DNA of 64,000 bases from a virus (lineage: Duplodnaviria; Caudoviricetes): IMG/VR virus record IMGVR_UViG_3300033518_000398, positions 14,764 through 78,763 of that record; one strand, given 5' to 3'. A program made the translations under genes and the position numbers. Shown piece after piece: positions 23,094-48,526 of the stretch. A model generated the notes under the pieces. That model worked only from the letters and a program-made list of their open reading frames with translations. It was not told where the DNA came from and made no database searches. Position 1 is the stretch's first letter. Each line of letters opens with the position of its first letter.

Positions 23094-23378
23094 ATGAAGA
23101 AAAAAACTAAAGAAATGCTTTTTGAAATGATGGAAAAATTAAATCCAGATTTCAATGTTCAAGAAGCTGGGGTTGCACCAGATGTTGTTAGTGCACAAAA
23201 AGCTACGACAACTAATGTGCAACGTGCTAATCAACGTATTGGTACACCACAAGAATTTCAAGATGGTTTTATGGCATGGCTTGGAACAACAGGCTTTGAC
23301 CCAGTAAAGAAACCATTAGGTATTTCTGATGCACAATCTCGTGTGAAAAACGCAATGATTGCACTGGGTTATAAATAA
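23094..23378 (+). CDS. LFE-leader family protein
   Basis: MKKKTKEMLFEMMEKLNPDFNVQE; GTATTTAT at 23072-23079. Confidence 0.7.
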   Translation: MKKKTKEMLFEMMEKLNPDFNVQEAGVAPDVVSAQKATTTNVQRANQRIGTPQEFQDGFMAWLGTTGFDPVKKPLGISDAQSRVKNAMIALGYK

Positions 23379-23435
23379 AAAATAATTATTTTTGAAAATA
23401 ATTTGAAATTTGTTTGTATTTATGATTTTAATGCA

Positions 23436-23443
23436 TATATTTG
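23436..23443 (+). promoter_or_regulatory. Bacteroidota sigma70 -7 element (TAnnTTTG) for attenuated tRNA cluster 1
   Basis: TATATTTG with TTTG about 20 nt upstream; same element at 24391, 26500, 42864, 47043, 52882. Confidence 0.75.
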
Positions 23444-23480
23444 CACTCAGAAGTTTTAATAAATGTTATTTGTAGTTGAA

Positions 23481-23555
23481 ATGAAAAATTTAGTGAACAT
23501 AGTGCCCCAACCGCAACAACATCCACAGGATGGTGAATGGGGAAAGTACGCTTAA
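23481..23555 (+). CDS. Attenuator leader peptide 1: MKNLVNIVPQPQQHPQDGEWGKYA
   Basis: Hand-translated 24-aa ORF; PQPQQHPQ run; GAATGGGG 23535-23542 complementary to the terminator 5' arm. Confidence 0.8.
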   Translation: MKNLVNIVPQPQQHPQDGEWGKYA

Positions 23556-23585
23556 TTTTTCAATTGAAGTTTTAAGTTAAACATG

Positions 23586-23614
23586 ACCCCATTCTGAAAA
23601 GAGTGGGGTTTTTT
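23586..23614 (+). terminator. Attenuator terminator 1
   Basis: ACCCCATTC-TGAAAA-GAGTGGGGT followed by a U tract. Confidence 0.85.
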
Positions 23615-23624
23615 ATTTTCATAT

Positions 23625-23702
23625 CTGGGTGTACTGCAGATGGCTATACTACGATGCCTTGGAAGCATCGGTCCGCAGGTTCGAATCCTGCCACTCAGAC
23701 CA
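23625..23702 (+). tRNA. tRNA-Pro(UGG)
   Basis: Cloverleaf; loop CTTGGAA; CCA encoded. Confidence 0.9.
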
Positions 23703-23706
23703 ATAT

Positions 23707-23784
23707 GGTGATTGTAGAGGAATTGGTAGACTCACCTGACTGTGAATCAGGAATCTTGCGGGTTCGAGTCCCGTCTTTCACCCA
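23707..23784 (+). tRNA. tRNA-His(GUG)
   Basis: Loop CTGTGAA; G-1:C73; two acceptor mismatches. Confidence 0.8.
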
Positions 23785-23808
23785 AATATCGTTCTTTTAT
23801 ATGGTTAT

Positions 23809-23882
23809 AGAGTAGTAGCGCAGTTGGTTAGCGTACCGCATTTGGGATGCGGGGGTCGAGAGTTCGAGTCTCTCCTACTCTA
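23809..23882 (+). tRNA. tRNA-Pro(UGG), second copy
   Basis: CCGCA-TTTGGGA-TGCGG anticodon arm. Confidence 0.9.
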
Positions 23883-23887
23883 CTGTG

Positions 23888-23958
23888 TTAGTTGTAGATG
23901 CTGGCATTCTACACGTGACTGTGAATCACGGATACGGGGGTTCGATTCCCCTCTAAAA
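23888..23958 (+). pseudogene. Degenerate tRNA-His(GUG)
   Basis: Intact anticodon arm CGTGA-CTGTGAA-TCACG and T arm; acceptor stem does not pair. Confidence 0.6.
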
Positions 23959-23997
23959 AATTTTTGTACTTAAAGTATTTATCTGAAAATTGTGTAT

Positions 23998-24360
23998 ATG
24001 AAAAAAGGTAATAAACAAATGTTATTTGAGATGATGCATAAGGTTGCAGGAATGCCTTTAAATGAAATGGCAAAACCAATAAAAGAATTTCGTAATACAA
24101 TTGGTGATAAAAAAATGGTTTATTATTTAATGCCAAATACTCCCAAAGCAGAAGAAAAGGGTTATGATACTTCAATATTTAAGGTTGATAATTATCATGG
24201 TAACGTGACATTATCATATTATTGGTTAAATAGAGAATCAGATGAAAATTGGTATAAACCCAAATATGGTACTCATGTAGATGAATATAAATCACAATAT
24301 ATTTCACAAAGTAGAGAACCAGAAAAAGCAAATATGTTAATTCAAAAGCATAATTTATAA
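23998..24360 (+). CDS. LFE-leader family protein inserted in tRNA cluster
   Basis: MKKGNKQMLFEMMHKVAGMPLNE; GTATTTAT at 23975-23982. Confidence 0.7.
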   Translation: MKKGNKQMLFEMMHKVAGMPLNEMAKPIKEFRNTIGDKKMVYYLMPNTPKAEEKGYDTSIFKVDNYHGNVTLSYYWLNRESDENWYKPKYGTHVDEYKSQYISQSREPEKANMLIQKHNL

Positions 24361-24406
24361 TATTATTGCATTAAATTATATTTATTTATATATATTTGCA
24401 TAATAT

Positions 24407-24479
24407 TGACCTGTGGTGTAATTGGCAACACGTCTCACTTTGACTGAGAAGAGTCCAAGTTCGAGCCTTGGCAGGTCAA
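24407..24479 (+). tRNA. tRNA-Gln(UUG)
   Basis: TCTCA-CTTTGAC-TGAGA; acceptor TGACCTG/CAGGTCA. Confidence 0.9.
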
Positions 24480-24495
24480 CTAATTTTCTTGGAAT

Positions 24496-24723
24496 ATGGA
24501 TGAATTGGAAAAATTACGAAAAGAAAATGAAGATTTGAAAGACAAATTAACTGATTTGACTTTTGAATTGAATTATAATAAACAAACCGAGTTAATTGAA
24601 TTCGTTCGTGAATTATATCAATCATTAGGTAATGTTGGTAAAAATCTTACAAAGAAAGAAATGATTGAAAATCTGAGAAACCATATTCGAGAGTTTACAA
24701 AAAATAATAAAATACAATTATGA
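24496..24723 (+). CDS. Small coiled-coil hypothetical protein
   Basis: 75 aa ORF. Confidence 0.65.
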   Translation: MDELEKLRKENEDLKDKLTDLTFELNYNKQTELIEFVRELYQSLGNVGKNLTKKEMIENLRNHIREFTKNNKIQL

Positions 24724-26532: not shown

Positions 26533-26622
26533 ATGAGAAATTTACTCGACATATTAATGGTAGCTTTGGAAGCAGTCCTATTATGGGCAGCAGATGAGGA
26601 TAAAATACGTTCAGTCGGGTAA
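26533..26622 (+). CDS. Attenuator leader peptide 2: MRNLLDILMVALEAVLLWAADEDKIRSVG
   Basis: 29-aa ORF after TATCTTTG promoter (26500); AGTCGGGT 26613-26620 complementary to the terminator 5' arm. Confidence 0.75.
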   Translation: MRNLLDILMVALEAVLLWAADEDKIRSVG

Positions 26623-26653
26623 TACAATATTACACACTCCTTTCTTTAATAAG

Positions 26654-26688
26654 AAAAACCCGACTCTCCACAATAAGTCGGGTTTTTT
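26654..26688 (+). terminator. Attenuator terminator 2
   Basis: AAAAACCCGACT...AGTCGGGTTTTTT. Confidence 0.85.
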
Positions 26689-26702
26689 GTTTTAGTGTGT
26701 AG

Positions 26703-26713
26703 GTTCTTTGACA
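26703..26713 (+). promoter_or_regulatory. boxA-like element
   Basis: GTTCTTTGACA; similar sites at 31619, 39194, 47286 and 48108, all in tRNA-bearing transcripts. Confidence 0.55.
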
Positions 26714-30175: not shown

Positions 30176-30540
30176 GGGGGCGACTTGGATTTGATTAGAT
30201 GTCAGATTGGTAAAGTAAGCAAGTCTTAGTTGAATCAGACTAAGTAAAAAAGGTTCAAAGCAGAAATGCAAACAATTTTTCAGAGGACATGATGTCCTTC
30301 TCAACTTCTGTAACAAGAGGTATCACCGTTTTCGAGAGTGCTGAACTCGAAATGGCTGCTTGAGAACAATAAACGGCAAAAACTTCTGGTGAAGTAAGTT
30401 ATGAATAAGTTAGTAACGAATCCCGAAGCGAAACTAATATTAAACTGTTATATTTTGCTGATTTAGAAAAATCGGATAAACTTGTAGAAAACCTATTAAT
30501 CACATTTAAGACGAGGGTTCGAATCCCTCCGCTTCCACCA
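30176..30540 (+). ncRNA. ssrA: tmRNA
   Basis: Acceptor GGGGGCG/CGCTTCC-A-CCA with G3:U; T arm GAGGG-TTCGAAT-CCCTC; tag ORF 30268-30363 ending MAA-stop. Confidence 0.9.
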
Positions 30541-36331: not shown

Positions 36332-37420
36332 ATGGAAGAAATACTTATTAAAGTTGACTGGAAAGTATTACAAAATTATATTGATAATAATTTAATTATT
36401 GCTAATAAACATCCAGAATATAATCTTTGGATACTTAATTATAGCTCTAAAACACAATCAAAAAATTTTTGGGATTTATATACAATATCATGTAGAGGAT
36501 TGATTGTTGATGAAAATGGCGTTGTTGTTGGTAGATGTATGAGAAAATTTAAGAACTATGAACAGCATGACCCATCAGAAATTGATATGTCGAAGAAATT
36601 CGAAATTTTTGAAAAGATGGACGGCTCATTAATTATCTTATTTTATTATGAACCACGTATGAGGTGGATTGTAGCTTCAAGAGGTTCATTTATCTCAGAA
36701 CAGTCACTCCATGCTGAGAAGATGATTGATGCAAACGTGTATAAGTATTTAAACACAAAGTCAACATATTTGTTTGAAGTAATTTATCCTGAAAATCGTA
36801 TAGTTGTTGATTATGGTGATAGAAATGAACTTGTATTGCTTGGAAATATAATCACAGCAACTGGTGAAGAATTACCATACGATAAGTTGGTTAGTATATA
36901 TTCTAAGTTTTTTACTGTTGTCGAAAGGTTTGAAATTGAAAACATAAACTTTTTAAAGAAATTGAAGGAACTTGAAGAAGATAATAAAGAGGGTTTTGTT
37001 GTACGTTTCGAAAATGGTTTCAGAGTAAAAGTTAAGTTCGAAGAATATATCAGATTACACGGTATTTTAACAAATGTATCAAACTTAACTGTTTGGGAAC
37101 ACTTGAAGAATAACTATAATTTTGATGAACTTCTCGACAGAGTTCCAGACGAATTTTATGACTGGTTAATGAGAACAGTAAAAACATTACAGTCAGAATA
37201 TAATGAAATCGAAAGAGTGGCATTATTAGAATTCGTGAAAATATATCACATTAATGGAATTACTGACCGTAAAGATTTTGCAACAGAAGTAATAAAAACT
37301 GAACATAGTTCAATATTGTTTAAATTGTATGATAAAAGGTCATATGGTGAAATTATCTGGAAGCAAATCAGACCTGTATACAGCAAGCCATTTAAGGATG
37401 GCTTCGAGTATATTGCATAA
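36332..37420 (+). CDS. RNA ligase (T4 Rnl1-like)
   Basis: CRGLI, KFKNY, EKMDGS (adenylation motif I), LFEVI, EGFVV, KVK. Confidence 0.9.
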   Translation: MEEILIKVDWKVLQNYIDNNLIIANKHPEYNLWILNYSSKTQSKNFWDLYTISCRGLIVDENGVVVGRCMRKFKNYEQHDPSEIDMSKKFEIFEKMDGSLIILFYYEPRMRWIVASRGSFISEQSLHAEKMIDANVYKYLNTKSTYLFEVIYPENRIVVDYGDRNELVLLGNIITATGEELPYDKLVSIYSKFFTVVERFEIENINFLKKLKELEEDNKEGFVVRFENGFRVKVKFEEYIRLHGILTNVSNLTVWEHLKNNYNFDELLDRVPDEFYDWLMRTVKTLQSEYNEIERVALLEFVKIYHINGITDRKDFATEVIKTEHSSILFKLYDKRSYGEIIWKQIRPVYSKPFKDGFEYIA

Positions 37421-37421
37421 T

Positions 37422-37453
37422 AAAAAATGGCTATGAATTTCATAGCCATTTTT
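37422..37453. terminator. Bidirectional terminator
   Basis: AAAAAATGGCTATG-AATTT-CATAGCCATTTTT. Confidence 0.8.
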
Positions 37454-39040: not shown

Positions 39041-39130
39041 ATGAGAACATTTGGAACATATTATCTTTATAAATCTTATAAGAAAACTCTTATGAGAATC
39101 GGGATTTTTATGTCCAAAACGCAAAGATAA
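39041..39130 (+). CDS. Attenuator leader peptide 3: MRTFGTYYLYKSYKKTLMRIGIFMSKTQR
   Basis: 29 aa with YYLYKSYKK run; GAATCGGG 39096-39103 complementary to the terminator 5' arm. Confidence 0.8.
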   Translation: MRTFGTYYLYKSYKKTLMRIGIFMSKTQR

Positions 39131-39156
39131 GCAATGATATTTGTGTATTGAAACAG

Positions 39157-39185
39157 AAACCCGATTCGTAAGATTCGGGTTTTTT
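39157..39185 (+). terminator. Attenuator terminator 3
   Basis: AAACCCGATTC-GTAA-GATTCGGGTTTTTT. Confidence 0.85.
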
Positions 39186-39225
39186 GTTATATTATTCTTT
39201 GAAGATTTGAAAGCGAAATGAAATT

Positions 39226-47009: not shown

Positions 47010-47102
47010 TTGAAAATAATTTGGAATTATCAAAACTTTATTTACCTTTGCAAAGTATTTAGATGAAAGAGATTTCAAATTTAATCAAAACATATTAAAA
47101 TA

Positions 47103-47231
47103 ATGAAAGCACAGGTATCCAATATTAATATTTCGTCAACGATTAATAGTCGTAATGGAAATGGTATATTCTGTTCAAGTTTTACAGGCAGAAATATAGC
47201 AGATACGGGTTCTGGTTTTCATGAGTCATAA
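47103..47231 (+). CDS. Attenuator leader peptide 4: MKAQVSNINISSTINSRNGNGIFCSSFTGRNIADTGSGFHES
   Basis: 42 aa after TACCTTTG (47043); 8 Ser, 6 Asn, 5 Ile, 5 Gly, 1 Cys; CGGGTTCT 47206-47213 complementary to the terminator 5' arm. Confidence 0.8.
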   Translation: MKAQVSNINISSTINSRNGNGIFCSSFTGRNIADTGSGFHES

Positions 47232-47255
47232 ATAACTCATAAAAATATTAAAAAG

Positions 47256-47285
47256 AACCCGAATTCACAAGATTCGGGTTTTTTT
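47256..47285 (+). terminator. Attenuator terminator 4
   Basis: AACCCGAATT-CACAA-GATTCGGGTT followed by a U tract. Confidence 0.85.
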
Positions 47286-47299
47286 GTTCTTTGAAATAT

Positions 47300-47983
47300 T
47301 TATAATAAAATTTTGGTGCGGATGATTTCATCGATAATTGTGAAATATGTGTATGCCCTATCTATTTTAAAATTAATGAATTTTGATGTGTCTATAATAC
47401 ATAACTCAATTCCCTGTTCTAAACAGGCTTGAAATTTACGGTTATCGTTATTTTGAATCTGGTTTAGTTTATCTTCACCATAAATTGGTTCATAATGAAA
47501 AACACCATTAAGTTCGAATGCAAGTTTAAGTTCTGGAATATAAATATCAAGTTCAGAATTTATAGTAGTTTTATCATTGAAGAAAAAGTCAATGTTTGGA
47601 TATTTTTTTATTAATTCAATGGCAATCCATTTTTCAAGTTTTGAAATTCGAGTACCTTTAGTCTTGTGTGTGTTATTATATGTAATAGAACAAGACCTTG
47701 AGCAGAAATTTTTTGTGGATTTAGAATTTTTTATTTCATAATTCGTTTTAATAATTTCTTTTCCGCAATTACCACACATCACTATGTGTCTTTTAGTTAA
47801 AATTTGATATTGATGTGAACAATTTTGTGAACAAAATTTTGCCGAATTTCTTTTACAATTAATTGCATACATAATTTGTCTTTTTGTTGTATGAAAAGGG
47901 TTACCACAAAATTCGCATTTACATTCAAATAAATCTGTTACTTTTCCAGATATTAATTTTTCATTTTCAAATAATGGTATCAT
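47300..47983 (-). CDS. Homing endonuclease with Zn fingers and PD-(D/E)xK domain, antisense to the tRNA cluster
   Basis: CxxC repeats; ELDIYIPELKLAFELNGVFHY. Confidence 0.85.
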   Translation of the reverse strand: MIPLFENEKLISGKVTDLFECKCEFCGNPFHTTKRQIMYAINCKRNSAKFCSQNCSHQYQILTKRHIVMCGNCGKEIIKTNYEIKNSKSTKNFCSRSCSITYNNTHKTKGTRISKLEKWIAIELIKKYPNIDFFFNDKTTINSELDIYIPELKLAFELNGVFHYEPIYGEDKLNQIQNNDNRKFQACLEQGIELCIIDTSKFINFKIDRAYTYFTIIDEIIRTKILL

Positions 47984-48437: not shown

Positions 48438-48526
48438 GAATGATTAGAATTTCGTAGCATAGTGGTAATGCTGCCCGCAAGAAAGGGTGAAGATTGGTTC
48501 GAGTCCAATCAAAATTTTAATCATTC
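48438..48526 (+). ncRNA. tRNA-like element with about 17-bp extended acceptor stem and atypical anticodon loop
   Basis: D and T arms intact; loop GCAAGAAA; GAATGATTAGAATTTCG pairs with CAAAATTTTAATCATTC (one mismatch). Confidence 0.5.

Follow-up and report, generated by a model that had tools for sequence, protein, structure and literature searches.

A candidate leader-peptide attenuator in front of a phage tRNA operon that would sense the tRNAs it controls

The analysis of positions 23481-23614 of a 64,000-nucleotide window of phage DNA (the window being the whole stretch analyzed here) points to a ribosome-mediated transcription attenuator of the trp/his type, in which translation of a short leader peptide would govern a tRNA operon and sense the very tRNAs under its control; we put the probability of this reading at roughly 80%. 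On this reading, the phage probably withholds synthesis of its Pro, His, and Gln tRNAs until these become scarce for the ribosomes. The anatomy of the element, its conservation among relatives, and the co-variation of its leader codons with the downstream tRNA set are observed directly. The attenuator interpretation offered in the original prediction gains support from the wider comparison, in which all of the sequence-level features were conserved across 83 distinct cassettes and the codons of the leaders tracked the identity of the tRNAs.

Two explanations have been offered for phage tRNA genes, namely codon compensation and, in more recent work, the replacement of host tRNAs cut by defence nucleases (PMC10264068, PMC11464382, PMC11555353). 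An attenuator that has the sensed tRNA as its output would represent a new regulatory logic for tRNA genes, providing direct negative feedback on tRNA supply with the ribosome as the reader.

Promoter, leader ORF, and tRNA array

The window covers most of a 78.8-kb virus record that encodes a portal protein, an endolysin domain, a ribonucleotide reductase, and an Rnl1-like RNA ligase, and it carries 25 tRNAs and a tmRNA, every one of them on the + strand (ARAGORN). The portal protein has relatives with 75-87% identity on IMG/VR contigs as long as 365 kb, and 36 and 53 tRNAs were counted in two of five records that were searched, which argues that the window is a piece of a jumbo phage, by its sequence one with Bacteroidota-type promoters. 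A blastn search against GenBank phages returned tRNA-level matches alone and found no close relative.

Related cassettes were collected by three pattern scans of viral contigs and metagenomes, using a degenerate codon pattern for PQPQQHPQ and a pattern built from three RNA arms only. Combined, the scans gave 121 places, which were reduced to 83 distinct cassettes in related jumbo-phage contigs, and an arm-ascertained set of 78 cassettes was found via the RNA arms alone. Eleven matches to the codon pattern were non-cassettes, lying in long ORFs or lacking a start codon, and these had neither a terminator nor tRNAs. All of the cassettes that could be checked among the 83 lie upstream of Pro/His/Gln tRNAs. 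The matches in GTDB genomes comprised two phage contigs inside MAGs and two chance matches in GC-rich DNA; the two contigs (L259, JBAZIW010000001.1, and L258, CAYPJS010000146.1), from MAGs labelled Paceibacterota and Anaerolinea, carry the cassette together with a tRNA array and were probably binned into bacterial MAGs as phage DNA.

A predicted promoter of the Bacteroidota type, read from the sequence, lies at 23413-23443 on the + strand and consists of a -33 TTTG (23413-16), a 19-nt spacer, and a -7 TATATTTG (23436-43). The TTTG/TAnnTTTG motif corresponds to the Bacteroidota sigma-A consensus. Of the 83 distinct cassettes, 82 have a TAnnTTTG box in the 100 nt that precede the leader ATG, mostly at a distance of 24-43 nt. 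Between this promoter and the tRNA genes lies the leader ORF MKNLVNIVPQPQQHPQDGEWGKYA (23481-23555, + strand), which starts with an ATG at 23481, runs for 24 codons, and ends with a TAA at 23553-55; an intact ORF of 22-25 codons is kept in the related loci (83 distinct). Codons 9-16 (23505-23528, + strand) are CCC, CAA, CCG, CAA, CAA, CAT, CCA, and CAG, all of them read by the downstream Pro, Gln, and His tRNAs, and both the coordinates and the codons of the eight-codon Pro/Gln/His run described in the original prediction match the sequence.

Against a background of 8.4% P+Q+H codons in the long ORFs of the phage, this eight-codon run is the longest P/Q/H run across the six frames of the 78.8-kb contig, and P/Q/H residues make up 93% of the leader core in the arm-ascertained set of 78 cassettes. 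Among 48 canonical leaders, synonymous variation (CAA/CAG, CCN) affects the third position of six of the eight codons in the run. The first Pro codon is CCC in 45 of the 48, a codon that accounts for 9% of Pro codons phage-wide, and this preference is as a CCCCA:UGGGG helix (described below) requires. The conservation of an in-frame ORF, its synonymous changes, and the fixed 18-nt distance between the RNA segment termed region 2 and the stop codon together point to translation of the leader.

The regulated genes follow closely. On the + strand, tRNA-Pro(UGG), tRNA-His(GUG), tRNA-Pro(UGG), and tRNA-His(GUG) occupy 23625-23961 (ARAGORN; 37, 51, 67, and 32 bits with the Rfam tRNA model), and the start of the first tRNA-Pro at 23625, given by both ARAGORN and Rfam, bears out the predicted 11-nt gap after the U tract, which leaves no space for a promoter. 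Within the duplicated Pro/His pairs, the copies at 23625-23702 (37 bits) and 23884-23961 (32 bits) score low compared with the others (67 and 51 bits), and these Pro and His copies may be divergent or decaying.

The eight P/Q/H codons thus precede Pro, His, and Gln tRNAs, the last of these being a tRNA-Gln(UUG) at 24407-24480 (+ strand) that is separated from the array by a 122-aa ORF (23992-24360, + strand) sitting between it and tRNA-His. The accompanying caveat that this tRNA-Gln has a promoter motif of its own was justified, as TATATTTG is present at 24391-98. Between 23611 and 26801, the + strand has no predicted terminator-like site. In relatives, the Gln tRNAs are mostly contiguous with Pro and His in the same array, and the isolated position of Gln here therefore looks like the result of an inserted ORF, with the ORF at 23992-24360 itself looking like an insertion into the array. 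Used as a probe for relatives over 23998-24360, this ORF returned a single weak locus, and array gaps of 200-800 nt occur in many relatives.

In 72 of 78 related cassettes the downstream tRNAs begin with Pro, and in 5 they begin with Arg; where at least 1.5 kb of downstream sequence is available (55 cassettes), Gln is found in all 55, Pro in 54, and His in 49. In half of the loci, no more than 30 nt separate the T run from the start of the first tRNA, a proximity implying that such tRNAs would be made only by read-through of the terminator. The distance from the terminator to the first tRNA exceeds 100 nt in 22 of 73 loci, which leaves room for another promoter and counts against the attenuator reading.

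Alternative RNA structures in the leader

Directly upstream of the tRNAs, a predicted intrinsic terminator (23585-23619, + strand) pairs 23585-95 with 23600-10 (regions 3 and 4) in an 11-bp stem of -17.4 kcal/mol followed by TTTTTTATTTT, and its hairpin at 23585-23610 is the top-ranked terminator-like site between 22 and 34 kb. This hairpin is 99% paired over 59 sequences, with compensatory pairs at the loop-closing position (UA in 11, AU in 5) and in the G003 variant. A mutually exclusive antiterminator is formed by region 2 (GAATGGGG, 23535-23542, + strand) and CCCCATTC (23587-94) in region 3; the original prediction had claimed perfect pairing with the terminator 5' arm, and the match is indeed exact, with 8 of 8 Watson-Crick pairs. 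The antiterminator helix is also 99% paired over the 59 sequences. No within-family covariation was found in these 59 sequences, in which both strands are invariant, and since both strands were fixed by two of the three search patterns, part of the invariance stems from the search; it speaks neither for nor against the helix.

Covariation is seen between families. Across 13 attenuators from five paralogous families, each has a 7-10-nt perfect complement of its own terminator arm, and the antiterminator duplex energy averages -14.0 kcal/mol for cognate partners versus -9.2 kcal/mol for cross-family ones. When 31 terminator-like hairpins of the contig were scanned as a control, three of four tRNA attenuators were found to have a GC-containing complement of the 5' arm upstream, compared with 2 of the 27 remaining hairpins, one of these two being the terminator of the RNA-ligase gene; the attenuator that was missed, the third along the window, escaped merely because its arm was truncated, and the complement there is GAATCGGG.

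Region 2 has an alternative partner in region 1 (CCCCAACCGC, 23505-23514, + strand), which lies inside the regulatory codons and pairs in the MFE fold with 23533-42 as the 5' strand of an anti-antiterminator. The core of this 1:2 helix joins CCCCA (23505-09, the first Pro-Gln codons) to UGGGG (23538-42), a classical anti-antiterminator arrangement, and the helix is 83% paired over the 59 sequences. The pairing, the CCC bias, and the masked folds presented below agree in predicting that a ribosome stalled on the regulatory codons would break it.

A second helix of the MFE fold, termed P0, pairs the start-codon region (23482-23498, + strand) with 23546-23562 (+ strand), a strand comprising the ORF end, the stop codon, and AAUUUUUC. 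Column-based pair counts for P0 were blurred by one-base shifts in the alignment register, and a duplex-energy test was used instead, in which cognate P0 duplexes averaged -10.3 kcal/mol versus -7.6 kcal/mol for non-cognate ones (permutation p about 2e-4). Compensatory changes in P0 occur in several lineages, for example, AAAGATT/AATCTTT and AAAGTTT/AAACTTT. In addition, masked folding of the ON state yields a spacer hairpin (23550-23577, + strand) in which GCUUAA pairs with UUAAGU of the conserved GTTTTAGGTTAAACA, and this hairpin appears in the RNAalifold consensus with mixed pair types (CG/UG/UA). The structural elements named in the original prediction hold up, and its picture is extended here by three that it omitted: the 1:2 anti-antiterminator, the helix between the start codon and the post-stop segment, and the ON-state spacer hairpin.

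A boxA-type site was considered for the conserved spacer motif and rejected; real similarity was not seen, and the motif is better explained as a strand of the spacer hairpin.

The leader region folds 5 standard deviations better than shuffled sequence (z = -4.97), and structure of this strength also suits a translation-independent RNA switch, whether riboswitch-like or T-box-like, as does a weak, sub-threshold Rfam match to the trpB motif (25.5 bits, where the cut-off is 59; E = 0.58). However, over 23300-24600 only tRNAs pass the Rfam gathering score, with no leader family (His_leader, Trp_leader, Leu_leader, Thr_leader, and others) and no T-box among the hits, and the conserved in-frame ORF, with its synonymous changes and a constant 18 nt between region 2 and the stop codon, fits poorly with a switch that dispenses with translation. 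A plain terminator ending an upstream transcript fares no better, given that the upstream gene has its own terminator at 23029-51 and that a conserved promoter lies between it and the leader. We regard both variants, taken together, as highly improbable.

Constraints on the RNA and on translation are both seen in the leader, at different sites. Region 2 starts exactly 18 nt ahead of the stop codon in 71 of 73 cassettes, a spacing that would place it under a ribosome terminating there, and its nucleotides are retained despite changes of frame, being found in another frame in locus L115 and behind the stop codon in locus L089. Together, the retention in these copies and the constant spacing argue that region 2 is kept as RNA and not as peptide.

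This bears on the idea that the ORF encodes a functional small peptide, such as a RiPP precursor, with its own terminator, and that the tRNAs arise through incidental read-through. The length of the leader and its N- and C-terminal motifs are conserved, and its tail, E-W-G-x-Y, shares the E-x3-Y spacing with PqqA. Yet GAATGGGG persists out of frame or past the stop codon in the two loci just named, the P0 and 1:2 pairings, with their compensatory changes, account for the conservation of the N- and C-terminal codons, three other, unrelated leaders share the same plan, and the gap from terminator to first tRNA is at most 30 nt in half of the loci. These observations led us to reject a PqqA-like peptide, and we give a functional peptide of any kind very little weight.

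Leader codons and the downstream tRNA set

Within the Pro/Gln/His family, the codons of the leader and the downstream genes change together. A CGN Arg codon occurs within the run in six leaders of three architectures (QPRHLQ, NNGRPQQ, and IRPRPQQ), and tRNA-Arg(ACG), with or without tRNA-Arg(UCG), stands first downstream in five of these six versus 0 of 69 others (Fisher 3.5e-7, uncorrected for ancestry). The exception, L149, has a CGC leader followed by Pro, His, and Gln only, with no tRNA-Arg. AGA, the common Arg codon, occurs outside the run and has no tRNA-Arg partner. On a poorly resolved tree of flank sequences, the Arg link changes four times on the best tree, with one change forced by supported branches, and a phylogenetic sign test of this link had fewer than six independent pairs. 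Four leaders have TTA or CTA Leu codons in the middle of the run, and three of them are accompanied by tRNA-Leu(UAA) or tRNA-Leu(UAG), the fourth (L177) having none within 3.5 kb. A mini-ORF that spells the downstream tRNA set can predict tRNAs that have been lost or moved in a given genome, and the cassette offers a sequence signature for annotating the tRNA operons of giant phages.

The same relationship extends across three sister cassettes in the window that share the build of promoter, leader ORF, region 2, and terminator and are conserved in relatives. One precedes tRNA-Asp (26533-26713) with a leader rich in D/E/V/L/A/W/M, another precedes tRNA-Tyr/Lys (39041-39190) with a leader rich in Y/K, and the last precedes a Cys-Ile-Ser-Gly-Asn block (47094-47290) with a leader rich in C/N/I/S/F/G/T/R. 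Each of the four leaders in the window is enriched solely for the amino acids of its own cluster, and the true pairing of leaders with clusters ranks 1 of 24 permutations. In relatives, the 20 amino acids are split among the four families as P H Q; D E V L A W M; Y K; and C N I S F G T R. Cognate residues make up 21-36 of 28-40 in the large families of the relatives (A2 and A4/A5), with the exception of one A2 copy (16/28), and 8-10 of 23-29 in families A1 and A3; in relatives with fuller arrays, the leaders of the two large families reach 24/30, 35/40, and 36/40.

A 227-aa ORF on the - strand (47300-47983) fills the 840 nt between the terminator of the fourth attenuator and tRNA-Cys. An odd tRNA with a four-base anticodon (aaga) is called by ARAGORN at 48447-48518 (+ strand), and the calls in relatives (L084 and L086) include similar odd tRNAs and a CUA-anticodon tRNA (labelled Pyl) that is a possible amber suppressor.

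Switching model and relation to known systems

From these features we infer leader translation, termination, read-through, and the nature of the sensed signal, in the following order of events. Transcription would start at the host-type promoter (-7 box at 23436-43), and the 24-codon leader would be translated while RNA polymerase advances. When Pro-, Gln-, and His-tRNAs are plentiful, or when no ribosome has loaded, region 2 (23535-42) would be out of reach, either because a ribosome that has arrived at the stop codon, 18 nt further on, covers it or because the long leader hairpin (P0 plus 1:2) sequesters it; the terminator at 23585-23610 would then form, and transcription would end 11 nt before tRNA-Pro. 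A ribosome stalled on the Pro/Gln/His codons (23505-28) would cover region 1 and free region 2, which would pair with the 5' arm of the terminator while that arm emerges, and the polymerase would continue into tRNA-Pro, His, Pro, and His, probably as far as Gln. By stalling on cognate codons, the ribosome would switch the operon on in response to a shortage of the very tRNAs that the operon encodes.

These states were modelled by masked folding, in which a 31-nt stretch (an assumed size) was blocked to mimic the ribosome footprint, and the predicted folds reproduce an OFF, an ON, and a second OFF state. With no ribosome, region 2 is predicted to be held in the 1:2 helix, region 3 is left free, and the terminator forms; with the A site on codons 11-14, region 2 is predicted to pair with the whole of region 3 before region 4 exists; and a ribosome positioned at either the stop codon or codon 16 is predicted to mask region 2. 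That a stall on the last regulatory codon (16) would hide region 2, given the assumed 31-nt footprint, is a point against the model. At equilibrium the terminator is stronger than the antiterminator (-17.4 versus -14.6 kcal/mol), and the choice between them must therefore be kinetic, as in the trp model.

A default of termination without ribosomes, together with a P0 helix that hides the AUG once the spacer has been transcribed, would also suit a genuine attenuator that senses general translation capacity (ribosome loading or pace, for example, under host shut-off or ribosome-targeting stress) and for which codon content is secondary. The nearest published case, the tRNA array of Anabaena, likewise answers general translational stress (PMC8421152). 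A general sensor, however, would have no need for CGN, TTA, and CTA codons that co-occur with matching tRNAs, nor for four leader families in each of which the amino acids of the matching cluster are used and those of the other clusters avoided, and we consider this version unlikely. For an attenuator that senses specific tRNAs, a further point against is that amino acid starvation would also stall the ribosome and that extra tRNA would not relieve it. Candidates for the natural cause of tRNA depletion are late-gene demand, host tRNA decay, and tRNA-cutting defence systems.

The proposed tRNA-sensing attenuator resembles the leaders of amino acid operons (trpL, hisL, leuL, and pheL, as well as thrL and ilvL) in its short leader with a run of regulatory codons, its alternative 1:2, 2:3, and 3:4 hairpins, its intrinsic terminator, and a stop codon positioned to bring region 2 under the terminating ribosome; like the leaders of thrL and ilvL, a single leader would sense several amino acids. 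It differs in controlling tRNA genes instead of biosynthetic enzymes, such that the output is the sensed molecule, in being phage-borne with Bacteroidota-type promoters, and in having the extra helix between the AUG region and the post-stop segment, and it shows no sequence or Rfam relationship to these leaders. To our knowledge, the leader-peptide attenuators described so far all regulate genes for amino acid biosynthesis, transport, or aminoacyl-tRNA synthetases, whereas the downstream genes here are tRNAs.

Among known systems, the pheM leader of E. coli governs pheST, an aminoacyl-tRNA synthetase operon, by attenuation. It is alike in that a gene of the translation apparatus is attenuated and the cognate charged tRNA is sensed, and unlike the phage cassette in that it controls a synthetase, responds to a single amino acid, and is chromosomal. 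T-box elements share a terminator/antiterminator decision that hangs on tRNA status, but they bind uncharged tRNA directly and without translation, while the phage cassette has a conserved ORF and no T-box match. In Anabaena sp. PCC 7120, the trn operon contains a long tRNA array that is induced by translational stress (PMC8421152, PMC10272220), and it is similar in being a supernumerary tRNA array that stays silent until translation is impaired. Its control differs in acting on the promoter, where the repressor TrcR binds direct repeats, and attenuation, a leader peptide, or a terminator is mentioned in neither of these two papers. A full-text literature search, which covered few subscription journals, found no leader-peptide attenuation of tRNA genes, nor does an eLife paper on phage tRNAs describe it. 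The novel aspect of the candidate cassette is thus that tRNA genes would be the regulated product of a leader-peptide attenuator, a form of control that we found described only for amino acid and synthetase genes.

Taken together, the four attenuators may, as a tentative proposal that we hold to be somewhat less probable than its opposite, constitute a self-contained tRNA homeostat, in which the leaders sample all 20 amino acids, each would induce its own replacement tRNAs upon their loss, and damage to the tRNA pool would be detected and repaired species by species, alongside the phage's RNA ligase and tmRNA. Such loss could come about through host anticodon nucleases, other tRNA-targeting defences, or the decay of host tRNAs during infection. 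In T4, an enzyme of the Rnl1 family mends tRNA-Lys that has been cleaved by PrrC. The Rnl1-like RNA ligase of the window (36332-37420, + strand; PHROG 562, E = 5e-65) is encoded some 1.6 kb ahead of the Tyr/Lys attenuator, and the phage-encoded tmRNA (30176-30540, + strand), with the tag peptide ANNFSEDMMSFSTSVTRGITVFESAELEMAA, lies within the tRNA region; the two fit a theme of translation protection, yet prove nothing. The terminator of the RNA-ligase gene (37425-37451, + strand) has an 8-nt upstream complement of its own 5' arm (AGCCATTT).
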